Virus record (IMG/VR): IMGVR_UViG_3300031997_002496
Reading direction: 5' to 3' (one strand)
From: a virus
DNA length: 15,828 nt
Shown: in pieces, positions 735 through 12,748 of the stretch
Layout of the letters: every line of letters starts with the position of its first letter
Position numbering within the stretch: the first letter of the stretch is position 1
Translations under genes and position numbers: made by a program
The notes under the pieces: model-generated
The model's input: the letters and a program-made list of their open reading frames with translations, nothing else
The model's database searches: none
Told to the model about the DNA's origin: nothing

Positions 735-1010
735 ATGCGTCGAACAAAGCGAGCAGGAATCGGGGAAGAGAAAGTGAAGAAGATTTCCGTCAAGCGACTC
801 CCCCGCAAGACCTCCTTCATTGTGCAGTACTCTGACGGACGTCGAGTAGAAACGTCGTACGTAGAGATCCAAGGAAATGCTACGCTCTACCTGGACCCTG
901 GAACGAAAGAGCCCGTCCTCCGGACAGAAGCAAACGTAAATCTCGGACACGCCACAGGAACCTGCGCGGTATGCGGGGGAGATACAGATGACCAACACGC
1001 CCATGCTTGA
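735..1010 (+). CDS. hypothetical protein (91 aa)
   Basis: ATG at 735, 3 nt after the receiver gene stop, preceded by GGGGATGAGG. It overlaps the next gene by 23 nt. No family recognised; there is a single CAVCGG near the C-terminus. Confidence 0.55.
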   Translation: MRRTKRAGIGEEKVKKISVKRLPRKTSFIVQYSDGRRVETSYVEIQGNATLYLDPGTKEPVLRTEANVNLGHATGTCAVCGGDTDDQHAHA

Positions 1011-3207
1011 CCGCTTCAAGATCGCCGCCAAGCAAAAGAAAGAAAAGAAGAAACCGGCGGAGCCGGAGTCCTTCAAATGGACAAGCGGCCCTGAGGAAAA
1101 AGAAGAGCCGGATGGTGCGGTCATGCGCGCCGCAAAGATGTTCGGTAAGGGTATGGGCGGGCTCGCCGCGGGAAATCTGGCAGCGACGCCTCTGGCCATA
1201 GGTACTTTCGCGCTGGACGACCGCCTCAAAGAGCAGAGGCCTGTAGGTACTCGGCAGATTGCCTCAGAGATGGGGCAGAAGATCGACAAGTATACGCACG
1301 GGGATCCTGGGGGCGGAGTCGGAGCGACCAGGGATGGGAAACTGGTTACGCTCATTCGTACGCGGCCAAAGGACTCAGAAGCCATCAAGGCGCACGAAGT
1401 GGGCCACGTCAAAAACGTTGAGATGGTTGGGAAGATGCCGTGGGGCCTCGCGCGAAGCGGCTCCGGAATGTTGACCAGTCTGAGTGGCCCCGCGGCGGGA
1501 GTCTATTCCGCCGTCGCCGACGACCCGTCGTACACCCCCTCGATGGTGCACCTCGGACTGAGCGCGCCGATCCTGTTGGACGAAGCTCTCGCATCTCTCC
1601 GAGCCCTGCATCACATGACTGGAAAGCATGGCCTCGGTACAGGGATGAAGCGGTCCCTCCCTCTGCTGCCAGCCTTTGGGTCGTATGCGGCGCAAGCCCT
1701 CGCACCGGCCGGAATCGTAGCGCTGCGCCGCTTCCTCAAAAAGAGGGAGGATGAAAAAAAAAAGACCAGCGGGGGAGTAGCCGAGAAAACGGCTAAGATC
1801 ACAACCAAGCTCAAGCCGCACCAACAGCGGGTCGTTGACCGCATGGAAGACGAAGACCAGCCGGGCATTGTGGCGGCCCATGGGTTGGGTTCCGGCAAAA
1901 CGCTGACAAGCCTGGCGGTGCAAGAGGCGCTCGGACTTCCTGCCGACATCGTAACACCTGCGGCCCTCCAGTCGAACTACCAAAAAGAGATCAAAGCTCA
2001 CACCACCAAGCATCCCGAAACACACATTCAAAGCTTGGAGGGCGTCGCTCGTACGGGCGGCTCGGGTCTCAAGAGCCCCTTCCTGGTGGTGGATGAAGCC
2101 CACCGTCTGCGAAATGCGGGCAAGGCTCGCACGGGGATCAAAGCTTCTCCAGCCAAGAAACGCCTCGCCCTCACCGGGTCCCTTCTCTACAACCACCCCT
2201 CCGACGTATCAGGCCCCATCAACATGGTAGCGGGGCGCTCCGTGCTTCCGGAGAACCCCGACGAATTCACTCAACGTTTCCTGCAAGACGTCCCCATGAG
2301 TCGCAGTCTCTGGGAACGTCTCCGGGGTACGCCCGCGTTCTATCAGACCCGTCTCAATCCAAAGTCGGTGGGGTCGCTCCAGGCAGCTCTCGACAAGTAC
2401 GTTGATTTTCACCCCGGTAGCACTGAGGACTTCCCGACGCGAGAAGACGCGACTGTCCGCGTACCGATGACCCGCGACCAGATGAAGCTGTACGAAAACG
2501 TTGGTAAGGATCAACCTGGCTGGCTGCGTCGGAAGGTTCTGATGAACCTCCCACCGACCAAAGCCGAAGCGAAACAGCTCAACGCTTTCCTCACCGGTGT
2601 CCGGCAGGTAGCCAACACAACGCAGGGATTTGACACCAGCGCCCACCCGGCGCACCAGCCGAAGATCGACCGAGCTGTGACAGAGCTGCAGAGCATGCTG
2701 GCGAAGAATCCTCGTGCGAAAGCAATCGTCTACTCGCACTACCTCGAATCAGGGATCGACCCGTACAAGAAGAAGCTTGAGGAACTCCACATCCCGCATG
2801 GTTCTTTCACCGGCGAGATGCCGCGCGCTGAACGGGACCGCATGGTGAAAGACTACAACTCCGGGAAGCTGAAAGCCCTGCTGCTCTCCAGCGCCGGCGG
2901 CGAAGGCTTGGACCTCAAGGGAACTCGCCTCATCCAACTCCTCGAGCCCCACTGGAATCAGGAGAAGCTGAAGCAGGTCATCGGTCGCGGCATCCGCTAC
3001 AAGAGCCACTCCGGCCTCCCCGAGAATGAGCGAAACGTCCTGGTGCAGCGGTACCTCGCAACGCGAGCTCCCTACGGAGCCATGGAGCGCCTGGGCCTAC
3101 GCAAGCCCGGCTACGGCGTAGATGAGTACCTCGATGAGATGGGCGCCCGTAAGGAGCAGCTGAACGAGCAGGTCCGGCGCATGCTGCGAGAGCCACAAAG
3201 TACTTGA
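988..3207 (+). CDS. SNF2-family (SF2) helicase/translocase with an N-terminal HExxH metallopeptidase-like region (739 aa)
   Basis: ATG at 988 after GGGGGAG. SNF2/SF2 motifs occur in order: KPHQQRVV (Q/Ia-like), GLGSGKT (1882-1902), LVVDEAHRLRN with DEAH at 2092-2103, LTGSLLYN, AIVYSHY, SSAGGEGLDL, QVIGRGIRYKS. The N-terminal region of about 250 aa has a Lys/Glu-rich start, then HEVGH (1393-1407) within IKAHEVGHVKN, flanked by Gly-rich or hydrophobic stretches (GMGGLAAGNLAATPLAIGTFAL; LPLLPAFGSYAAQALAPAGIVAL). Confidence 0.9.
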   Translation: MTNTPMLDRFKIAAKQKKEKKKPAEPESFKWTSGPEEKEEPDGAVMRAAKMFGKGMGGLAAGNLAATPLAIGTFALDDRLKEQRPVGTRQIASEMGQKIDKYTHGDPGGGVGATRDGKLVTLIRTRPKDSEAIKAHEVGHVKNVEMVGKMPWGLARSGSGMLTSLSGPAAGVYSAVADDPSYTPSMVHLGLSAPILLDEALASLRALHHMTGKHGLGTGMKRSLPLLPAFGSYAAQALAPAGIVALRRFLKKREDEKKKTSGGVAEKTAKITTKLKPHQQRVVDRMEDEDQPGIVAAHGLGSGKTLTSLAVQEALGLPADIVTPAALQSNYQKEIKAHTTKHPETHIQSLEGVARTGGSGLKSPFLVVDEAHRLRNAGKARTGIKASPAKKRLALTGSLLYNHPSDVSGPINMVAGRSVLPENPDEFTQRFLQDVPMSRSLWERLRGTPAFYQTRLNPKSVGSLQAALDKYVDFHPGSTEDFPTREDATVRVPMTRDQMKLYENVGKDQPGWLRRKVLMNLPPTKAEAKQLNAFLTGVRQVANTTQGFDTSAHPAHQPKIDRAVTELQSMLAKNPRAKAIVYSHYLESGIDPYKKKLEELHIPHGSFTGEMPRAERDRMVKDYNSGKLKALLLSSAGGEGLDLKGTRLIQLLEPHWNQEKLKQVIGRGIRYKSHSGLPENERNVLVQRYLATRAPYGAMERLGLRKPGYGVDEYLDEMGARKEQLNEQVRRMLREPQST

Positions 3208-3521: not shown

Positions 3522-3699
3522 TGTACAGCTGCGCCGCGCCGCTCTCAACTACGGGAAGTGGCAAAAGAAGGCGAAGGAATCCCAAACCATGAAAGATCGA
3601 ATCCGGTTCGTGCACGCCGAAACAAAGTTGGGTATGGCAGCCCAAGCGGTTTTCGAGAAGGAGCAAAAACGTGAAGCGCGAGGAAGAAACAAAGGCTAG
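3508..3699 (+). CDS. hypothetical basic protein (63 aa from ATG 3508; GTG 3502 possible)
   Basis: AAAGGGGAG (3494-3502) lies 5 nt before ATG 3508. The protein is Lys/Arg-rich and predicted helical. No family recognised. Confidence 0.45.
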   Translation: MLSLDVQLRRAALNYGKWQKKAKESQTMKDRIRFVHAETKLGMAAQAVFEKEQKREARGRNKG

Positions 3700-3880
3700 G
3701 TCCCGCGCTGCATGGCGGGCATGGTACAGACGGCACCACGCCGAAGCGAAGGCATACTACCGGGAACGGTACGCAGAAAAGCTGAAGAAGGAGACCTCCG
3801 AGGAACGCGAACTGCGATTGGCGCAGGCACGCAAACACCAGAAGAAGTACGCAAGTCGTAAAAAGAAAATCAAGGAGTAG
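3671..3880 (+). CDS. highly basic helical small protein (69 aa), possibly nucleic-acid binding
   Basis: GTG at 3671 preceded by GAAGGAG (3656-3662). The sequence AWRAWYRRHHAEAKAYYRERYAEKLKKE...KKYASRKKKIKE is extremely Lys/Arg/Tyr-rich. Confidence 0.5.
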   Translation: MKREEETKARSRAAWRAWYRRHHAEAKAYYRERYAEKLKKETSEERELRLAQARKHQKKYASRKKKIKE

Positions 3881-3883
3881 CCC

Positions 3884-4378
3884 ATGTTCGTCGTACTCGA
3901 TCTTGACCAGACCCTCGCTGACAATGCCCACCGCGCCCATCACGTAGAAAAGGAACCCAAGAACTGGGATGCGTTCTTTGCTCCGGACCTCGTCATCAAA
4001 GACACGGTCATCGTGGGCGCAGAACGTGTCCTCACCCACTTCAATGACTTGAAATACGACTTCGTCATCCTCACAGGACGTAACGAAGATCTCCGCGACA
4101 CGACCATGCGCTGGATCCAAGAGAAGCTGAGCATCACGGTGCTCGATACACACCTGCTCATGCGCCCCAACGGAAACATGCTCAACGCGGCGGAGTTCAA
4201 GCGGGAGCAGCTGCTCAACTTCAAGCAGGGGCTCGAGAATCGAGACAGCGACTTCATCATCATCGATGATGACTCCGCGGTAGGAGCGGCTCTGAGTTCT
4301 TTCGGTGTCGTCCTCAAGGCGCCGGAGTGCTGGCCTCTTCTTTTCCCGGTCCAGGAACCCGAGAAAATCGAAGAGTAG
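3884..4378 (+). CDS. HAD-superfamily phosphatase, T4 Pnkp phosphatase-domain-like (164 aa)
   Basis: ATG at 3884 after AAGGAG. HAD motif I is DLDQT at the extreme N-terminus (MFVVLDLDQTLA, 3899-3913), motif II is ILTGR, and motif III/IV is Lys (FKREQ) followed by IIIDDD. The size and the pattern WDAFF ... LTGRNEDLRDTTMRWI ... LLMRP match stand-alone phage polynucleotide 3-prime-phosphatase/nucleotidase-type HAD proteins. Confidence 0.8.
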   Translation: MFVVLDLDQTLADNAHRAHHVEKEPKNWDAFFAPDLVIKDTVIVGAERVLTHFNDLKYDFVILTGRNEDLRDTTMRWIQEKLSITVLDTHLLMRPNGNMLNAAEFKREQLLNFKQGLENRDSDFIIIDDDSAVGAALSSFGVVLKAPECWPLLFPVQEPEKIEE

Positions 4379-5053: not shown

Positions 5054-5470
5054 ATGAGCCACCCTCTCGAGAATGCCTACTGGACCGGCCAGGTCGCGGC
5101 CTGTGAATCGTTTGGCGTCAAAGAAGCTGGAGTCCTCGGACAGATCGGCAAGTGGGGCGGCAAAGCCCTGCAATGGGGTGGGCGTGCCGCCGGAGTTGTA
5201 CCGGTCGCCGGTGAGGCCGTCGGCGCTATCGCTGGTGGCCTCGGCGGCGTGATGCAGGGCGCTGCCCAAGGTGAAGGCTGGAAGGGCATGGCCGCTCGCG
5301 GAGCGGCCGGTGCTGCCACTGGCGCGATGCCTCTCGGAGCTGGTCTGGTCGCTGGCGCTGCGAGTGATCTCGCGCTCGACAAGATGCTGGCGAAGAAACC
5401 CCCGGGGCCTCAGAACGCCCCAATGCCGGGGATGATGGGGCAGGGGCACCTTCCGGGGCATGCTGCGTGA
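5054..5470 (+). CDS. Gly/Ala-rich protein (138 aa) with N-terminal Y-x2-G-x2-A-A-x3-F motif
   Basis: ATG at 5054; stop TGA overlaps the next start. The motif AYWTGQVAACESFG is at 5078..5113. It is followed by glycine-zipper-like stretches (AGEAVGAIAGGLGGVMQGAAQG, GAAGAATGAMPLGAGLVAGAAS) and a Pro/Met/Gly tail. Confidence 0.65.
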   Translation: MSHPLENAYWTGQVAACESFGVKEAGVLGQIGKWGGKALQWGGRAAGVVPVAGEAVGAIAGGLGGVMQGAAQGEGWKGMAARGAAGAATGAMPLGAGLVAGAASDLALDKMLAKKPPGPQNAPMPGMMGQGHLPGHAA

Positions 5471-5952
5471 TGTCCCTCTCTCACCACGCATACAGCCTCG
5501 GAGCCTCGGACGCCAAAGTGGCGTTCTTTGGAGAGCTCTACGAGAAGCACATCAAAGGGGATCTTGGCCCCTTCGCGAGCGGTCTCTTCGTAGGGAGCCC
5601 TCTTAGTGCCGCGGCGGCAGGAGCCGCGGGACAAGCTCTCGACACGCCGGCTGGAGGATCAAAGATTCTCCGAAGTATCGGTGTCGGAGCCGGTGCAGCG
5701 GCGGCGAATAAGGTAGTTTCCCCTATCGCTAATTTCGTAGCCCATGCGGTAATGATGGGGCTCAACCCCATTCTGTATTCTTTGCCGGTGTTGGGATACC
5801 CGCCAGTCGCCGCGGCTATTTCGCAGCTGCTCGGAACCGCGATCCACGAGATTCCGACAGGTATCGCCCAGTCGTATGCTGCAACAAAGGGCCGAGCAGC
5901 GGCGCAACATCTTGAGAAGTTCCTACAGAAAAAGGACGTGAGGGTACCATGA
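5470..5952 (+). CDS. Gly/Ala-rich hydrophobic protein (160 aa) with N-terminal copy of the shared motif
   Basis: ATG at 5470 shares its A with the upstream TGA (GTGATG; GTG 5467 is also possible). The motif AYSLGASDAKVAFFG is at 5491..5526. Hydrophobic stretches (SIGVGAGAAAANKVV, MMGLNPILYSLPVLGYPPVAAAISQLLG) may be membrane-active. Confidence 0.65.
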   Translation: MSLSHHAYSLGASDAKVAFFGELYEKHIKGDLGPFASGLFVGSPLSAAAAGAAGQALDTPAGGSKILRSIGVGAGAAAANKVVSPIANFVAHAVMMGLNPILYSLPVLGYPPVAAAISQLLGTAIHEIPTGIAQSYAATKGRAAAQHLEKFLQKKDVRVP

Positions 5953-6563
5953 TGACCAAAGAATGCACCTGCAAGGACGGCAAGAAAGATCCGAAGTGCA
6001 AGGCTTGCTCGAAGGGTGACGTCAACCTGGACAGCTTTCACCGCCTGAATCCTGAGGCCAAGCCCAAGACGGCTGGGCAGTTCAAGCTCGCCGGAGGGAA
6101 CCCCGGACTGTGGGGTGGGCTGAGTCAGGCCACCAAAGACCGCATCCTCAGCGCGGGCAAGGCGGGGCTCACCAGCGCCGTGCTGCCTGCGGCGGGCTCT
6201 GCGCTCGCAGCGGGTCTGGCGGCTGAACCGGGGCAGGGCTGGTCCGACGCGGCGAAGGCAGGGCTCGTGGGCGCAACGGCTGGCGGGCTTGCTGGCGCAG
6301 GACACCACCTCGGCATGACGGGGTCCAGCGACCTGGCGCACAGCTACCAGCGCGGCATCGGCGGCGACGTTCGAAACATGGGCAACTGGGGACGAGAGCA
6401 GATGGGACGCCCACTTCTGGCGCACCCCAACACCCCGCCACCGCCGAAAGTTGTTCCTGCTCCCGATGTGACGCCGACTCCCTCTGTCACCCCTGAAATT
6501 CCGAAGACGGGGATGTTCTACGAGTTCGGGAAGACCGCGGCGCTCTCTGCCTTCGCAATCTGA
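5949..6563 (+). CDS. Gly/Ala-rich protein (204 aa) with an N-terminal Cys knuckle and a C-terminal copy of the shared motif
   Basis: ATG at 5949 in an ATGA overlap with the upstream stop, preceded by GTGAGGG. The N-terminus is CTCKDGKKDPKCKAC (CxC...CxxC). The middle is Gly/Ala-rich and is followed by a Pro-rich stretch. The C-terminus is FYEFGKTAALSAFAI-stop (6519..6554). Confidence 0.7.
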   Translation: MMTKECTCKDGKKDPKCKACSKGDVNLDSFHRLNPEAKPKTAGQFKLAGGNPGLWGGLSQATKDRILSAGKAGLTSAVLPAAGSALAAGLAAEPGQGWSDAAKAGLVGATAGGLAGAGHHLGMTGSSDLAHSYQRGIGGDVRNMGNWGREQMGRPLLAHPNTPPPPKVVPAPDVTPTPSVTPEIPKTGMFYEFGKTAALSAFAI

Positions 6564-6570
6564 GACTCCC

Positions 6571-6756
6571 ATGCCTTTCAAAAGCGAAGCACAGCGCCGG
6601 CTGTTCCACGTGAAGGCTGACAAGGGAGAGATCTCCAAGGACACCGTGAGCGAGTGGGAGCACGCCACCAAGAACAAGAAGAAACTCCCAATGCACGTAA
6701 AGAAGTCCTACGAGCTTGGAAAACAGGCGGCGCTGAAAAGCTTTGCACTGAGGTGA
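6571..6756 (+). CDS. small protein (61 aa) with a KSxAQxR N-terminal motif (DUF3008-like, from memory) and a C-terminal copy of the shared motif
   Basis: ATG at 6571. MPFKSEAQRRLFHVKADKGEISKDTVSEWEHATKNKKKLP resembles the widespread small KS-x-AQ-x-R ... LP proteins of phages and bacteria. The C-terminus is SYELGKQAALKSFALR-stop (6709..6744). No clear Shine-Dalgarno. Confidence 0.55.
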   Translation: MPFKSEAQRRLFHVKADKGEISKDTVSEWEHATKNKKKLPMHVKKSYELGKQAALKSFALR

Positions 6757-6759
6757 GCG

Positions 6760-9700
6760 GTGGGTGAGTACGACCGGGGAGCTCGAGCAGCGCTAGCCCT
6801 CTTCAGCAAGGAGGCCAATACCGGTGTGACCGCGGGCCACGTCAATCCTCTTCCGGTCGCAGGCAGCGGGTTCAATCAAGTAGCACAACAGGGAAATCCG
6901 ATGGCAGGACGGGTCGCCCACTCCCTCGTCGGTGGCGCCACTGGCGGAATTCTCAACGCGATGATGGCCCCCTCAGGGGACCGCATGCGGCAGGGGGCCA
7001 TTGGCTTTGCGTCAGACGCCATCGGAAGCGCCCTGGGCCCTTGGGGGATGATTGCCAGCCCCCTTCTGAACATGGGGCTCCAACAGCTGACATCCTCAAG
7101 TGGGGAAGAGAAGCGCGCTGACCACGCGGATGATCGGCTGAAAGAGCGAATCAAAACGGAGTTCCCGCCGGACACGCTGGCAAAACTCAGAGCACAAGCA
7201 AAAGAACTCGAGCTCGCTCCGGGACGGTACTACCTCCCGATGAAAGACAAGGCCGGGAACACAGCGGCAATTGCAGCGTTCAAGACCGTTGGCCCGAAGG
7301 ATCAGCTGGTACTGGCGACAGTTCTGAAACCCAAGAACAACCCTCCGTCAGGCACATCACTTTCGCACCTGATGAAGCAACCTCTCGGGTCCCAGATTGC
7401 CAAGGTGGATGCGTCCCCCAAGACATACACGATCCGCAAGAACGACGCAGGGCGCCTGACGTGCACCTGCAAGAGCTTCAAGTTCAACCACCGAGCGGCG
7501 GGCACGAACTGTAAGCACATCGACGAGCACCTTGGAAACACGAAGGAGTCTGCGAACCGGTTTGAGCAGTTCCTCCTCAACCAGGGTAACGTCAGCGATC
7601 CTCAGAAGACGCAACTCCGTGGACAGTTCGGACGGCTGACCCCTCGCCCGACGGCGAAGTCGAAGGCCCTCACCAGCCAAGCTTTGGCGCTGGAGCCTGG
7701 TCCGCAGCAAGCAGCGTCTCTGCGGTCCATGCGGACGTTGATGCAGACGCCGCACTACCCGGACAAAGACAGCCTCGAACGAACGCGCCGAATTCACGAG
7801 CTCTCCCTCACACCAAAGCTTCGAGCAATGGGCGGCAAGAGTCTTGACGCTCGGCGTGCTGCGGCGACCGACCCCACGTTCTTCTACGACGAGAAGAAAC
7901 GGTTCGCGACGCCAGGAGAGTACCAGGCCAAGTCGTTACGTCTCGGCGAAGAAACAGCTCCCACAGGGCTCCGGGCCGAACACGTTCTTCGCTCTGCGGC
8001 GGCAGGGAAACCCATCGAAACCAAGCTCTCCCCTGAAGCAGGGCGGCTGGTGATGTACCCAGACGCCTTGAAGGTGCAGCGTGAGCGCCTGAACAAGCAA
8101 CGCACCACCCCCGGCCAAACCAAACCCTGGGACCCCACCGACATGCGCCAGACCCTTGAGCACGAGGGGGCGGAGCGCAAGATGGTTCTCGAAGGCGTGC
8201 GCAGAGGCAAGCCGTCCACAGCGTACTCTTCGCACTGGGGCAGTGAGGCTGACGTCGCGGCGAACCAGGTCGCAGCCAAGGATCCCAAGAGTCAGTGGGT
8301 TCCAAACAACCCCGACTCCTTCATCGAGAAGGAACACTGGGACCGCCTCTACAAGCAGCACGGCGGGACTCGGGGACGCCCCATCCCGTCAGACAGTCGA
8401 GCTTCACGCAGCTTGGATAGATCAATCGCAGGCGTCATGGCGAAGACCCCCTTGACCGAGAAAACGCGGCCAGATCTCACAGCCGCCTTGGACGCAGGAG
8501 TCATGGGAATGCCTCTCCATCCGGAACTCGAAGCGCGTCTGAAGCGTGACTTCACCAAACTGAAGCCGGAGCTCGGTGAAACCTCCGCGCCCTGGGACGA
8601 CGCATCCCGGAGCCAAAAGGCTCTCGAAGTCCTGAAGAGTCGAACCCGGATGAAGACGTCCGCGGAAGGCGTGCGTCACTCTGGTGAACCCATCGACAAC
8701 CAGGAGGAGCCTCAGACCACGGAGGCTCCGATGCCTCCGCCTGAGAAGAAGAAGTCCTGGCTCCCTGCCTTGGGTACCGCGGCGGCGCTGGGACTTGGGA
8801 CGTACGGCCTCCTTCGCCGACCCTCGTTCTCTGCGAACCCCGCCCTGCGGAAAACACAGCAGTTGGCGGCGGAGAAAGGGTTCCACCGCATCGTTCCGGT
8901 GATGAAGTCCACAGATCTCCCAGACCCTGAGGCGGGGTTCCTGGGGCGGCTGCACCACAAGATTCAACCCAAAGTCGATGAGCAGGGCCGCATGAACTTG
9001 CTCAACCGCTTCAAGTTCTGGGCGCAGGAAGGCGGAGAAGCCGTCCCTATCGGGTACACGGACAAAGGGAAGGCGTTCATCCCCAACGGAGGGAAGCCGG
9101 TCAAGACTGAAGGCGTTGTCTTCGGTCGCCCCATGCTCGAGCCGAAGGAACGCAAACTTGTACGGGGTGGGGTGGACATCGAGGGGTCGGCGAAGACCCA
9201 ACGAGCCCTTACCGACATGGGGTTGAAGGGCAAGGGCATGGAAGCAACCCTCCTTCAGCGCCATTCCCCAGGAGCGGCGCCAAAGACGGTCGTCGATCTC
9301 TCCAAGTTCATGGCGCCTCCAAAGGGGAGAGAAACTTCGAACCAGCGGGTTGCGCGGATTCGCGAAATTCAGAAAGCAATGCAGGCAAAATTCAAAGGTA
9401 CGGAGATGGAAGACCACCTCCTCAAACCGACCCTTGGATTCAACTCCGGCGGGAAGTTCCCCATGAGCGGGGACGATTGGGGCAAACACCTCGCCAGGTT
9501 CGACAAAGCCATGGCAGATCCGGCGTTCAAGGCGAAATTTCAGAAAGCCACCCCCGACGAATTCGCCAACATGGTGTGGGACAAGAAGATTCTCGAGGGA
9601 CACACGCTCCACGAGATGCTGAAGAACCCGCAGTCGGCGATTGCTCAGCAGCAGATCCCCAACCGGCTTGGGGAGTGGCGCGTCAACGTTACCAAGGGTG

Positions 9701-10158
9701 AAGCCCCGTTGAGCATGATGGCGCCGCGTGGGGCTACCGACAACCCGATGGAGTCTCTCAAAGAACTGGCAACTGAGGGAGTAAGCCCCTTCAAGATCAA
9801 ACAGTTCGTTGAAGGCCACGTCCGAAAGCTTCCGAAGCACTACCGCGAAGGAACGTACGGCGCTGACGTGATGCCGTACTACACGCCTGAAGGGAAGCTG
9901 GACTACAAATTCGTCGAGCTCAACCCATCAGAGCGGGCGGGGTACCACGGTAGCGCCGGTGGCGGCTCAGGCTTCCTCGACGCCAGCAACATCCCCTGGG
10001 CGGGGCACGCACACTACCGCACGGCGACGGGCCGCCACACGACGCCAGTGGCTATGGCCGGAGGCTTGGCAGCGGCTGGGCTGGGCGGTATGGCGGCTCG
10101 AGCGCTGACGCCTGAGCAGAAGGATGAGGAAGAAGACGCCCCACATCCTGTGGGCTAA
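6760..10158 (+). CDS. 1132-aa multidomain protein: N-terminal shared motif plus Gly-rich region, SWIM-type zinc finger, central region of unknown function, TM segment, C-terminal ATP-grasp-like domain
   Basis: GTG at 6760 after GAGGTGAG. The N-terminus is MGEYDRGARAALALF (motif at 6769..6804). SWIM pattern CxC-x14-CxH is in LTCTCKSFKFNHRAAGTNCKHI (7462..7518). A hydrophobic segment SWLPALGTAAALGLGTYGLL lies at about 8754..8815. ATP-grasp-like motifs lie at about 9400..9990: LLKPTLGFNSGGKF (Lys-containing ATP-binding strand plus Gly loop), IAQQQIPNRLGEWRVNVTKGE (E-x-R-V strand) and YGADVMPYYTPEGKLDYKFVELNPSERAG (Mg-binding x-E-x-N). The C-terminus has a second hydrophobic Gly/Ala stretch and an acidic tail. 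Confidence 0.88.
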   Translation: MGEYDRGARAALALFSKEANTGVTAGHVNPLPVAGSGFNQVAQQGNPMAGRVAHSLVGGATGGILNAMMAPSGDRMRQGAIGFASDAIGSALGPWGMIASPLLNMGLQQLTSSSGEEKRADHADDRLKERIKTEFPPDTLAKLRAQAKELELAPGRYYLPMKDKAGNTAAIAAFKTVGPKDQLVLATVLKPKNNPPSGTSLSHLMKQPLGSQIAKVDASPKTYTIRKNDAGRLTCTCKSFKFNHRAAGTNCKHIDEHLGNTKESANRFEQFLLNQGNVSDPQKTQLRGQFGRLTPRPTAKSKALTSQALALEPGPQQAASLRSMRTLMQTPHYPDKDSLERTRRIHELSLTPKLRAMGGKSLDARRAAATDPTFFYDEKKRFATPGEYQAKSLRLGEETAPTGLRAEHVLRSAAAGKPIETKLSPEAGRLVMYPDALKVQRERLNKQRTTPGQTKPWDPTDMRQTLEHEGAERKMVLEGVRRGKPSTAYSSHWGSEADVAANQVAAKDPKSQWVPNNPDSFIEKEHWDRLYKQHGGTRGRPIPSDSRASRSLDRSIAGVMAKTPLTEKTRPDLTAALDAGVMGMPLHPELEARLKRDFTKLKPELGETSAPWDDASRSQKALEVLKSRTRMKTSAEGVRHSGEPIDNQEEPQTTEAPMPPPEKKKSWLPALGTAAALGLGTYGLLRRPSFSANPALRKTQQLAAEKGFHRIVPVMKSTDLPDPEAGFLGRLHHKIQPKVDEQGRMNLLNRFKFWAQEGGEAVPIGYTDKGKAFIPNGGKPVKTEGVVFGRPMLEPKERKLVRGGVDIEGSAKTQRALTDMGLKGKGMEATLLQRHSPGAAPKTVVDLSKFMAPPKGRETSNQRVARIREIQKAMQAKFKGTEMEDHLLKPTLGFNSGGKFPMSGDDWGKHLARFDKAMADPAFKAKFQKATPDEFANMVWDKKILEGHTLHEMLKNPQSAIAQQQIPNRLGEWRVNVTKGEAPLSMMAPRGATDNPMESLKELATEGVSPFKIKQFVEGHVRKLPKHYREGTYGADVMPYYTPEGKLDYKFVELNPSERAGYHGSAGGGSGFLDASNIPWAGHAHYRTATGRHTTPVAMAGGLAAAGLGGMAARALTPEQKDEEEDAPHPVG

Positions 10159-10182
10159 AAAACGCCCCCAGCTACGGGGGCG
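10157..10182 (-). terminator. intrinsic terminator between convergent genes (full hairpin plus U-tract on the minus strand only)
   Basis: CGCCCCC (10163-10169) pairs with GGGGGCG (10176-10182) across a 6-nt loop. The plus-strand A6 run (10157-10162) becomes a U-tract after the hairpin for the minus-strand transcript ending at 10188. The plus-strand transcript sees the hairpin without a U-tract. Confidence 0.75.
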
Positions 10183-10187
10183 GTACT

Positions 10188-10613
10188 TCACTGAGTCCTG
10201 ACAACCAGGCACCAGTTGGTCCAACGCTTACGGAATGCGTTGTGCGTCATCTTCGTTCCCAAGAGCCGGAGCGGCGCCGGGTCCGCCAGGTAGACGTACT
10301 TCGCGTCACAGCCGTGCACGACGCCGAAGTGGTCGCCGTCGAGATGAACAAGCAGCAGCTTCTCCTTCTTCAGCGCGGCTTGCAGCTCTCGGAATCGCAT
10401 GCGGTAGTTGTGCTGCACGTGAAGCTTTCGCTTGCGAAACGCTTTGATCATCGCATGTACTCGCGTGCCCTTTTCAGGGGTGCACCCAAGCTCACGCTTC
10501 AAGCGGCGGTACGGTGACCGGTCGCCGAAGTGATGAAGGATCATCGCTACAGAGTGCACTCCGCACGAATAGCTGTCGAGCTGAATGGATCTACGGAAAA
10601 CGGATATCGTCAC
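10188..10613 (-). CDS. stand-alone peptidase C39-like (papain-fold, bacteriocin-processing type) cysteine peptidase (141 aa)
   Basis: GTG at 10613 after GGAGG with a 6-nt spacer. The C39 catalytic pattern occurs in order: Gln11 (SIQLD), Cys17 in SYSCGVHSVAMIL (codon 10563-10565), His95 in DGDHFGVVHG, and Asp111 in YLADP. There is no fused ABC-transporter domain and no transporter gene in the window. Confidence 0.75.
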   Translation of the reverse strand: MTISVFRRSIQLDSYSCGVHSVAMILHHFGDRSPYRRLKRELGCTPEKGTRVHAMIKAFRKRKLHVQHNYRMRFRELQAALKKEKLLLVHLDGDHFGVVHGCDAKYVYLADPAPLRLLGTKMTHNAFRKRWTNWCLVVRTQ

Positions 10614-12520: not shown

Positions 12521-12748
12521 TCACGTCTCGCCAGCTGATCCTTTACCAGCAGGAGGGACAGAACCTCCTTGTCGGGGATCGGTGCAGAGACCTTCTTTGA
12601 TGTATCTTTCCGCTTGGCGGCCATAGTGTCCTTGTAGTGTCCAGGCCATGCCTGAATCGATTAGCTTTTGGAAGAAGGCCACCTCCTCCGCGCTGGTCAT
12701 CTCGTCGTTCTCGTACTTGATCAGGTCCTCGGTCAAAATCTGATTCAA
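12521..12748 (-). CDS. small conserved-looking phage-type protein (75 aa)
   Basis: TTG start at 12748 in a TTGA overlap with the ligase stop. The pattern ...YENDEMTSAEEVAFFQKLIDSGMAWTLQGHYGRQAERYIKEGLC resembles a small protein family I recall from many phage genomes (E-x-x-x-FF/LF-Q-x-LID-S-G-x-x-W-x-LQG-x-YGR). That recollection is unverified. Confidence 0.55.
   Translation of the reverse strand: MNQILTEDLIKYENDEMTSAEEVAFFQKLIDSGMAWTLQGHYGRQAERYIKEGLCTDPRQGGSVPPAGKGSAGET

Follow-up and report, generated by a model that had tools for sequence, protein, structure and literature searches.

In the window, the 15,828-nucleotide stretch of viral DNA analysed here (IMG/VR record IMGVR_UViG_3300031997_002496), a small gene encoding 61 amino acids and a giant gene encoding 1132 amino acids lie one behind the other in frame 1, separated only by the stop codon TGA (6754-6756) and a single codon, GCG (6757-6759). 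This arrangement raises the question whether one gene was recently cut in two, whether ribosomes pass the stop codon to produce two isoforms, or whether two genes share a frame by coincidence. An earlier note made from the letters of this DNA had described the shared frame and had pointed out that read-through would place two copies of a common motif 8 residues apart. Both observations were confirmed from the window sequence: the motif comprises 12 residues, and its copies YELGKQAALKSF (6709-6744) and YDRGARAALALF (6769-6804) would flank the junction in the hypothetical read-through product. Our analysis indicates that the two ORFs are probably real, separately initiated genes of one operon, that they represent the split form of a protein which is fused elsewhere and are translationally coupled, and that the shared frame is a side effect of their spacing. 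The features on which this argument is built are listed in Table 1.

Table 1. Coordinates of the genes, domains, motifs and junction elements in the window.
Feature	Position	Strand	Evidence or remark
Small gene, 61 aa, stop TGA	6571..6756	+	N-terminal module and C-terminal motif helix
Portable N-terminal module, aa 1-45	6571..6705	+	Profile search
Motif copy 1, YELGKQAALKSFALR, C-terminus of the small protein	6709..6753	+	Predicted helix 46-57
Shine-Dalgarno-like GAGGTGA	6750..6756	+	Read from sequence
Stop TGA and 3-nt spacer GCG	6754..6759	+	Stop and spacer codons both differ among relatives
Giant gene, 1132 aa, GTG start	6760..10158	+	ORF listing, Pfam scan, AlphaFold2 of aa 2-271, comparison with P0070
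Motif copy 2, YDRGARAALALFSKE, N-terminus of the giant protein	6769..6813	+	Predicted helix 2-20
ADHADDR domain, ADHADDRLKERI...LSHLMKQP	7117..7380	+	Alpha-alpha-beta-beta-beta fold (AlphaFold2), pLDDT about 90
SWIM-like zinc-finger motif, CTCKSFKFNHRAAGTNCKH	7435..7521	+	Pfam SWIM (PF04434) below curated cut-off
Same motif, N-terminus of gene 5054..5470	5078..5113	+	Pattern scan
Same motif, N-terminus of gene 5467..5952	5491..5526	+	Pattern scan
Same motif, C-terminus of gene 5949..6563, directly upstream of the small gene	6519..6554	+	Pattern scan
Control junction TAG-CCC-ATG, AAGGAG ahead	3878..3886	+	In-frame stop/3-nt spacer/start between unrelated genes 3671..3880 and 3884..4378
GC-rich hairpin with T-run, terminator-like	10163..10182	. 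(called on - strand)	Between the convergent giant and C39-peptidase genes

The shared frame by itself carried little information. A one-in-three chance of coincidence had been allowed for it, and frame sharing at this junction does not exceed that chance. The same punctuation of stop, 3-nt spacer and start also joins unrelated neighbouring genes. One such control junction, leading into the PNKP-phosphatase gene, was found in the window itself, and others occur at further gene boundaries in the relatives. Homologous loci were located with the ADHADDR domain of the giant protein as the marker.

The comparison of fused and split homologues that had been proposed revealed both kinds, with at least 15 fused and 14 distinct split ones. 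Fused homologues are L001/L002 (1482 aa), L003, L004, L092, L095, L096, L097/98 and L102, together with P0001, P0002, P0005-7, P0021 and P0070. In L082 the small gene has been precisely lost. L001 is 73% identical to the window over the N-terminal half of the giant protein, and five genomes, those of the window, L001, L003, L004 and L006, have one gene order: SNF2 helicase, PNKP phosphatase, Gly/Ala-rich genes, this locus, DNA ligase. In the split form, the small protein ends 3 residues past the F of the motif and the body opens with the second motif copy. Since both fused and split homologues exist, the two ORFs appear to be parts of one functional unit. When viral and genome contigs were scanned with the domain alignment, no further close locus turned up; the genome contigs yielded a single remote match, 39% identical, on a Myxococcota MAG contig of 2.4 kb. 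A tblastn search of 50,697 GenBank phage records with both proteins was negative, and the family is known only from metagenomes. The two genes belong to an uncultivated phage of about 170-190 kb.

The junctions of the 14 distinct split loci divide evenly, seven being in frame and seven out of frame. In-frame relatives of the window are L105/106, L107, L108, L112, L091 and L093. The out-of-frame loci show an ATGA overlap (L083, L087, L090), TGATG (L084) or a stop plus 2 nt (L006, L099, L111), and the window and its relatives together display spacings of -4, -1, +2 and +3. Across the split loci the homologous stop is TGA, TAG or TAA; within the in-frame clade five loci end the small gene with TGA and two, L091 and L112, with TAG. 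In this clade any of G, T, C and A can stand at +4, and GCG, TGT, CGC, TGC, AGC and CCG occur as spacer codons. A downstream start, GTG or ATG, occupies the homologous position in 7/7 in-frame loci, with freely varying codons next to it, and GAGG or GGAG stands 5-6 nt ahead of the start in the stop+2 and stop+3 loci; nine relatives show it, L091, L093, L105, L107, L108, L112, L006 and L099 among them.

A recent split, in which a nonsense mutation or small duplication lately broke a fused ancestral gene of this genome, is unlikely on this evidence. It could draw on the existence of fused homologues, one of them as close as L001 (73%), and on the motif found on both sides of the break, as a duplication would leave it. 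However, the suggestion of the earlier note to this effect was not borne out, the same junction, from the end of the small protein with its Shine-Dalgarno codons over the 3-nt spacer and start to the second motif, being common to lineages that differ at 39-95% of their synonymous sites. Among the split lineages the small gene showed dN/dS values of 0.06-0.25 at pS of 0.39-0.95; it is under purifying selection, with synonymous sites near saturation. Moreover, the two motif copies have separate consensus sequences that are conserved across many phages, Y[DE]xGVxxALxxF[AG]L[RE]-stop for copy 1 (25 copies) and Y[DE]xGAxAALAxFSK for copy 2 (16 body copies).

The direction of change also speaks against a recent split. 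In a neighbour-joining tree of the ADHADDR domain the in-frame loci formed one clade, with the fused L092 and L002 nested beside L091 and with L006 (+2) basal. L092 equals L091 minus exactly 54 nt, an in-frame deletion comprising motif copy 1, stop, spacer and ATG and bounded by short GCGT.CGACG-like repeats; L002 retains the old ATG-TCT-GAC and a mutated CTGAG..ATG junction. L092 and L002, the fused genes closest to the window, branch inside the split clade and still bear traces of its junction, and so look like derived re-fusions. An origin of the fused genes by recombination between the motif copies was considered and rejected: the fused proteins carry the pure copy-2 type, and L092 differs from L091 by a deletion of copy 1, stop and start.

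Programmed read-through is less probable still. It would have a set share of ribosomes decode the TGA to yield a 1195-aa fusion with two tandem motif helices beside the short product, that is, two isoforms. A lone UGA does stand between two in-frame ORFs with no further stop, the layout of in-frame stop, one codon and start recurs in 7 distinct loci of the window's clade, and fused proteins are clearly functional in relatives. UGA is, in addition, the leakiest of the stop codons (PMC7026636). Yet in the other 7 distinct split relatives the small and giant genes are out of frame with each other, a finding which the earlier note had itself named as refuting its proposal and which leaves it unsupported, and the in-frame loci form a single clade. 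TAG replaces TGA in two of these, L091 and L112, and what is conserved at the junction is the start codon and the Shine-Dalgarno sequence of the downstream gene. A leaky context was defined here as UGA with C or A at +4, A at -1/-2, or a downstream stimulatory RNA structure; the window reads AGG-UGA-G, with G at +4 where C would be favourable, and the spacer codon shows no constraint. All 14 tabulated natural fused proteins carry one motif copy each, of the copy-2 type, and none has two in tandem.

RNA folding and tRNA searches led in the same direction. The window junction, examined for a read-through stimulator or a start-masking hairpin, folded no better than shuffled sequences (z = +1.07), and the consensus structure of seven sequences reached only -6.5 kcal/mol with an unfavourable covariation term (+1.29). 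No suppressor tRNA was detected, as the contig and the examined loci of relatives contain no tRNA except a tRNA-Ile in L006. The in-frame +3 spacing is kept in 7/7 distinct members of the window's clade despite the near-saturated synonymous sites, a pattern that selection for the in-frame arrangement would equally yield; since, as a rough neutral expectation, about one indel would fall in a 3-nt spacer over that tree, spacer conservation has no power to discriminate. A -1 frameshift fusing the out-of-frame L006 genes at the A-rich AAGAAAAAGAAAAAG upstream of their junction was rejected as well, the shifted frame skipping motif copy 1 and the run not being conserved elsewhere. Low-level incidental read-through of the in-frame UGA probably adds some fused product because this stop is the leakiest; the unprogrammed rate normally lies below 1e-4 per stop codon (PMC7026636).

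Two further explanations have practically no standing. The first, that TGA is recoded as an amino acid by an alternative code, selenocysteine or a phage-encoded suppressor, finds a precedent in the stop-codon recoding reported for some large phages. However, TGA is the commonest stop in the window, where it terminates 12 of 22 genes at conserved C-termini (SNF2 helicase and DNA ligase included), and no long window ORF needs it as a sense codon; the homologous junctions use TAG and TAA, no SECIS-like hairpin lies 3' of the TGA, and the contig holds no tRNA. The second, that the TGA is a mistake of sequencing or assembly or that mutation has inactivated a gene in decay, would be conceivable for a window that originates from a metagenome assembly. 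However, the TGA is not an assembly error: the source contig L109 is 99.99% identical to the window over 15.8 kb, and L110, a second assembly under another run accession and perhaps from the same sample, is 100% identical over 2722 nt with the junction included. Moreover, 13 other distinct loci have a stop at the homologous position, and both parts are under purifying selection or conserved at full length.

The reading that two separately initiated genes are coupled agrees with the signals at the junction itself. The end of the small gene, with the final codons CTG AGG and the stop, supplies GAGGTGA, whose GAGG core precedes the GTG by 6 nt. As these codons and the TGA form a Shine-Dalgarno sequence, a ribosome finishing the small gene would restart, or a new one would bind, at the GTG 3 nt downstream. 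From this arrangement we infer independent initiation at GTG 6760 and coupling by reinitiation. Coupling of this kind would deliver the two products in a fixed ratio, and a spacer of exactly 3 nt places the two genes in the same frame as a by-product of the spacing. Across the split loci the ORFs are co-directional and -4 to +3 apart. The window and nine relatives have a ribosome-binding site where the upstream ORF ends, and the downstream start is conserved in every in-frame locus. Translational coupling is most efficient at spacings of -4 to +3 nt (review, PMC12548453), and every spacing observed here falls inside this range. The small and giant products most likely act as a complex, a Rosetta-stone argument suggested by the fused forms, and the amphipathic helix Y-x-x-G-x-x-x-A-L-x-x-F borne by each part may hold them together or target a common partner.

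Neighbouring genes of the operon are arranged in a similarly tight manner, being joined by GTGA and ATGA overlaps (5467-5470 and 5949-5952). Neither a promoter nor a convincing terminator was found within 5054..10158; the hairpin behind the giant gene may end this operon. The C39 peptidase encoded beyond it (10188..10613, - strand) was considered as a motif-processing enzyme and rejected, there being no conserved double-glycine site after the motif.

Among the closest known systems are short-spaced pairs translated by termination and reinitiation (Huber et al., 2019, 2023, as reviewed in Brown and Wade, 2025, PMC12548453), which, to go by the title of Huber et al. (2023) cited there, often encode subunits of one complex. 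The locus resembles them in the co-directional ORFs at -4 to +3 nt and in the Shine-Dalgarno sequence within the end of the upstream ORF, and its relatives use the typical ATGA and TGATG forms at the same place. It differs in that the +3 form of the window is generally less common than -4 or -1, and in that each partner bears a copy of one short helix motif where the break lies. Fission/fusion (Rosetta-stone) pairs likewise consist of two blocks encoded by one ORF or two adjacent ORFs depending on the genome, with conserved synteny and, as here, with recurrent switching among closely related genomes (L091 versus L092; L111, L083, L082 and L003). In contrast to such pairs, the split forms here hold an extra, diverged junction helix that the fused forms lack, and the N-terminal block is a portable module occurring on unrelated proteins as well.

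Recoding systems offer two further comparisons. In double-stranded DNA phages, isoform pairs are made by programmed frameshift or read-through, and lambda provides an example in its tail assembly chaperones G/GT. As in that case, a short and a long product could in principle share one start codon; however, the window junction has no slippery site or conserved recoding signal, the unique part of the long product amounts to 1132 aa with its own start, and the layout is not family-wide. The A1 protein of coliphage Q-beta results from UGA read-through of the coat gene at about 5% (PMC7026636). There too a phage gene ending in UGA is followed by an in-frame open reading frame, whereas the downstream gene of the window has a start and a Shine-Dalgarno sequence and its relatives are out of frame or carry TAG or TAA. 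The Q-beta extension is not known to have a start codon or a Shine-Dalgarno sequence of its own.

The small protein begins with the module MPFKSEAQRR..GEIS..EWEHATKNKKKLPMHV and ends with motif copy 1. An identical protein, P0023, had already been called as a gene on the source contig, and its stand-alone homologues, 61-70 aa long, number at least 20. Its AlphaFold2 model consists of three helices (residues 6-18, 23-32 and 46-57) with a mean pLDDT of 81. Searches of the small protein against Pfam, PHROGs and NCBIfam revealed no family (one non-significant PHROG match, E=0.038), its profile gave a chance match only among PDB sequences (E=1.5), and Foldseek of the model against the PDB returned nothing below E=4.7. 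A full-text literature search for the peptide FKSEAQR retrieved no papers. The N-terminal module, for which Pfam, NCBIfam and the PDB yielded no family match, was widespread in a profile search, which returned 2049 cluster representatives at E<=1e-3. In the top 150 of them it begins at residue 1 nearly always, in proteins of 56-1041 aa, and it is also joined to unrelated proteins such as an SNF2 helicase, DUF5661 proteins and glycine-zipper proteins.

In the front half of the giant protein, motif copy 2 is followed by Gly/Ala-rich helices, the ADHADDR domain and the SWIM-like CxC..CxH; the remainder comprises a long middle region, transmembrane-like segments and a possible ATP-grasp-like C-terminus. 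The ADHADDR domain alignment (A1) has a mean column identity of 73%. The sequence pattern of this domain had raised the suspicion of a RelE/DUF4258-like toxin fold, but Foldseek gave RelE without significance (E about 0.4, probability about 0.2) and found no significant fold match in the PDB. The Pfam SWIM score was 13.1 bits against a cut-off of 19.6 (E=0.071); the cysteines and the histidine of the signature CTC..C.H are kept in relatives. Pfam gave no match to an R2K-clade ATP-grasp in the giant protein of the window. The fused homologue P0070 matches R2K_3 at E=1.4e-4, below the cut-off, and this region aligns to window residues 651-1094 with 25% identity, the ELNP of the window being a possible ExN motif.

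The helix motif is not confined to the junction. The pattern [YH]..G...A...[FY] matched five times in the six-frame translation of the window, whereas 200 shuffles averaged 0.56 matches and never gave more than 3, and this repetition exceeds chance. The five copies, confined to the + strand and to positions 5078 to 6804, each sit at one end of a protein, and the five genes concerned are consecutive: those starting at 5054, 5467 and 5949, the small gene and the giant gene. The copy at the C-terminus of the gene directly upstream recurs in its counterparts in L003, L082 and L083. The invariant Y, G, A and F fall on one helical face, around a small-xxx-small core G-x-x-x-A. A tentative and rather doubtful extension of the coupled-pair reading is that the helix serves as a modular docking or sorting tag, such that the copies on the split halves pair or bind one partner and rebuild the fused protein non-covalently, with the MPFKSEAQRR module as a portable handle. 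If true, this would account for the free switching of the locus between fused and split states, and the module of about 2000 clusters would be an N-terminal handle attached by the tag to varied cargo proteins.

For annotation, the two ORFs should stay separate genes, neither merged nor flagged as a recoding site. The proteins are uncharacterised; they feature an N-terminal module of wide distribution and a helix motif at their termini, and the giant one adds the ADHADDR domain, a SWIM-like motif and possibly an ATP-grasp domain. In closely related uncultivated large phages the locus lets a single protein be followed, as a clean natural series, through its fused and split states, which is useful for learning how genes of phages come apart and join again and through which short elements the pieces go on working together.

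The small gene (a 61-aa ORF) and the giant gene (1132 aa) share a reading frame, with only the codon GCG between the stop of the former and the GTG start of the latter, as the earlier note had described. A 12-residue helix motif, Y-x-x-G-x-x-x-A-L-x-x-F, was located on both sides of this junction (YELGKQAALKSF before the stop, YDRGARAALALF after the start), and in a hypothetical read-through product its copies would lie 8 residues apart, also as claimed. The TGA is reproducible: the window is 99.99% identical to its source contig, ena:ERZ27247761:k141_2973883 (21.1 kb), and, over 2722 nt that span the junction, 100% identical to a second assembly, from run SRR9617604, which may come from the same sample. 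The Shine-Dalgarno sequence of the window, GAGGTGA (6750-6756), is formed by the last sense codons plus the stop, which also accounts for the L-[R/E/G] ending conserved among the small proteins.

Relatives were gathered by scanning viral and metagenome contigs for sequence patterns, by using the small protein and the giant N-terminus as queries in protein searches, by exact-protein look-ups with flanking DNA and by profile search. The comparison of fused with split homologues proposed in the earlier note was decisive, since both forms exist. Three architectures were found: fused, split and small gene absent. The fused proteins are encoded by one ORF comprising the N-module (residues 1-45 of the small protein), a single motif and the body. 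In the split architecture (14 distinct loci), the small protein is 61-70 aa long and stops about three residues past the motif F, and the body gene opens with a second motif copy. Taken together, the sequences indicate an unremarkable case of translational coupling at the junction, between two genes that tend to split and fuse.

Features of the window and of its relatives (L, relative loci or contigs; P, homologous proteins)
Feature	Position or state	Strand	Description
SNF2 helicase	988..3207		N-terminal HExxH region
PNKP-type phosphatase	3884..4378
Gly/Ala-rich proteins	in window		a run of them
Motif copies	5078-5113, 5491-5526, 6519-6554, 6709-6744, 6769-6804	+	pattern match
Small ORF	6571..6756	+	61-aa product MPFKSEAQRRLFHVKADKGEISKDTVSEWEHATKNKKKLPMHVKKSYELGKQAALKSFALR; stop TGA 6754-6756
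Giant ORF	6760..10158	+	GTG at 6760, 1132 aa, same frame as small ORF
Terminator-like hairpin	10163-10182		downstream of giant gene
C39 peptidase	10188..10613	-
ATP-dependent DNA ligase	12745..13863	-
Major-vault-protein (MVP)-like gene	14888..15820	-	C-terminal part
Junction, window	in frame (+3)		TGA-GCG-GTG
Junction, L105/106	in frame (+3)		TGA-TGT-GTG
Junction, L107	in frame (+3)		TGA-CGC-GTG
Junction, L108	in frame (+3)		TGA-TGC-GTG
Junction, L112	in frame (+3)		TAG-TGC-GTG
Junction, L091	in frame (+3)		TAG-AGC-ATG
Junction, L093	in frame (+3)		TGA-CCG-ATG
Junction, L006	out of frame		TAA-AA-ATG
Junction, L099	out of frame		TAA-AG-ATG
Junction, L111	out of frame		TGA-CC-GTG
Junctions, L083, L087, L090	out of frame		ATGA overlap
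Junction, L084-86	out of frame		TGATG overlap
Fused examples			L001/L002 (1482 aa), L003 (247 aa), L004 (246 aa), P0070 (1041 aa)
Further fused examples			L092, L095, L096, L097/98, L102, P0001, P0002, P0005-7, P0021
Small gene absent			L082, L088
Compared indel sites	L091 2566-2686; L082 2990-3010		versus L092; versus L083/L111

Programmed read-through of the TGA, which the earlier note had considered as a source of two isoforms, was unsupported. Half of the split relatives carry the two genes out of frame, the outcome that the earlier note had named as refuting this reading, and all in-frame loci fell into one clade of a neighbour-joining tree of the ADHADDR domain (a conserved domain of the giant protein, 7117..7380), so the shared frame is a single inherited state rather than a repeatedly selected one. 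Within this clade the stop varies (TGA in five loci, TAG in two), the base following it is G, T, C or A, and the spacer, if translated, would add A, C, R, C, C, S or P. Every locus of the clade has GTG or ATG at the start position and GAGG or GGAG invariably 6 nt upstream of it. The spacings seen between stop and start (-4, -1, +2 and +3 nt) are all within the range of the most efficient coupling (PMC12548453). The RNA fold of the junction was no better than that of shuffled sequences (z = +1.07), and the consensus fold of seven sequences was weak (-6.5 kcal/mol) with a positive, unfavourable covariation term. Leaky termination is associated with A at -1 and -2 and C at +4 (PMC7026636), features that the window context AGG-UGA-G lacks. 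Finally, a read-through product would carry two tandem motif copies, an arrangement absent from all 14 natural fused proteins that were tabulated, whose single motif is of the copy-2 type. In the small-gene linker of the out-of-frame locus L006 (6130-6150), an A-rich run, AAGAAAAAGAAAAAG, encodes KKKKK and resembles slippery frameshift sequences; it is not conserved in other loci. Recoding of TGA was excluded as far as the sequence at hand allows, because TGA ends 12 of the 22 window genes and the contig encodes no tRNA genes.

The punctuation of stop, 3-nt spacer and start is generic in these phages. A second in-frame junction of the window, AAGGAG-TAG-CCC-ATG (3878-3886), joins a 69-aa ORF (3671..3880) to the unrelated PNKP-phosphatase gene, which shows that the arrangement is generic in this genome. 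In L083, L084 and L111 the same punctuation links the small gene to the gene before it, and it was found at other neighbouring pairs in relatives.

With a dN/dS of 0.06-0.25, the small gene shows purifying selection, and synonymous divergence among the in-frame loci amounts to 39-95%, so the split junction is old. The interpretation in the earlier note was partly supported: fused and split forms are indeed related, read-through lacks support and a recent split does not hold. The locus L092, about 83% identical to L091 in DNA, lacks exactly 54 nt of it (copy 1, TAG, AGC and ATG) through a deletion between short similar repeats; being in frame, this deletion removes one motif copy, the stop and the start and thereby fuses the genes. 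In fused L002 the old start, ATG-TCT-GAC, is still present, as is what mutation has left of CTGAGG..ATG. Those fused genes that are closest to the window therefore look derived. In L082, which clusters tightly with L083 and L111 in the domain tree, the whole small gene was lost precisely, and the upstream gene (...ATYLR-TGA-CCG-GTG) now joins the body. The locus has thus changed state repeatedly, by clean indels in these relatives, and in the clade of the window the change went from split to fused, opposite to a recent split.

The pattern [YH]..G...A...[FY] occurred five times in the six-frame translation of the window, whereas 200 shuffles gave 0.56 on average and never more than 3; the repetition is real. 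All five copies lie at termini of products (5054..5470, 5467..5952, 5949..6563, the small ORF and the giant ORF). Written as Y-x-x-G-x-x-x-A-x-x-x-[FY], the helix motif stands at the N- or C-terminus of each of five successive products of the Gly/Ala-rich operon. Relatives share this pattern; in L003, L082 and L083, for example, the gene that precedes the small gene ends in ...YQAGADAALATYLR. Copy 1 (Y[DE]xGVxxALxxF[AG]L[RE]-stop) and copy 2 (Y[DE]xGAxAALAxFSK) are distinct and each conserved. On a helical wheel, the invariant Y, G, A and F lie inside a 60-degree arc with a G-x-x-x-A core, a geometry that would be compatible with helix-helix packing.

Profile search with the N-module retrieved 2049 cluster representatives (E<=1e-3; clusters at 50% identity); among the best 150 the module nearly always begins at residue 1, in proteins of 56-1041 aa. 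The module, MPFKSEAQRR..GE(I/M)S..EWE..T..K.LP (window 6571-6705; L002-L081; P0060-P0204), matched nothing in Pfam, NCBIfam or PDB and represents a large uncharacterised family. It stands alone (46-80 aa) or heads unrelated proteins, among them an SNF2 helicase (L009), DUF5661 proteins and glycine-zipper proteins. P0101 (5438 aa) contains six matched stretches, the top-scoring one being internal (residues 3401-3459). AlphaFold2 predicted three helices for the small protein (pLDDT 81), the third being the motif; family and fold searches gave no match. The giant N-terminus is predicted to begin with the motif helix, followed by a disordered linker and Gly/Ala-rich helices; an alpha-alpha-beta-beta-beta domain, modelled with confidence, and a SWIM-like unit come next. 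Its model had no significant PDB match. Where the giant C-terminus aligns, the fused homologue P0070 showed a sub-threshold R2K_3 ATP-grasp match; this part is 25% identical to window 9700-10030 (giant aa ~980-1090), which holds ELNP, a possible ExN motif. The ATP-grasp assignment is only a lead, and together with the SWIM-like motif it hints at a protein-modifying enzyme.

The window is phage-like, its syntenic relatives are IMG/VR viral contigs of 168-190 kb, and the small and giant proteins had no match in any deposited GenBank phage. The MVP-like fragment, cut at the window end, matched MVP_shoulder (E=5e-19), and a 904-aa version in L084/L085 (4716-6606) also matched Vault repeat families. 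The SNF2 helicase carries an N-terminal extension of ~260 aa with a metallopeptidase-like motif, HEVGH; in tblastn the extension aligned to L003 only (64% identity, full length), and with L001, L004 and L006 the alignment was confined to the helicase core, from residue 267 on (77-84% identity). The C39 peptidase domain is stand-alone (E=8e-19), convergent with the giant gene and kept at the same position in L006 and L001; a double-glycine substrate was looked for and none was found. The sole ADHADDR match in genome collections, a distant one (39% identity), was L118 (JBMOIG010000350.1), a 2.4-kb contig in a Myxococcota MAG, a very weak hint to the host.

The region 5054..10158 looks like one operon, with gene junctions GTGA, ATGA, +7 and +3, no promoter-like site seen inside it and a single, weak terminator-like site on the + strand (5754-5772). 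Under the coupling model that we infer from sequence, ribosomes would first translate the small gene, and at the TGA the same ribosome would restart at GTG 6760, or a new one would be recruited there, via the Shine-Dalgarno overlapping the stop. The output of the giant protein would thereby be tied to that of the small protein. As UGA is leaky, traces of a fusion protein are likely made by read-through, with no sign of being required. Since fused versions are common, it is very likely that the small and giant proteins work as a unit, with the duplicated terminal helix as the leading candidate for holding them together or routing both to one partner. Some modest interest attaches in its own right to the uncharacterised module, to the motif and to the giant protein.
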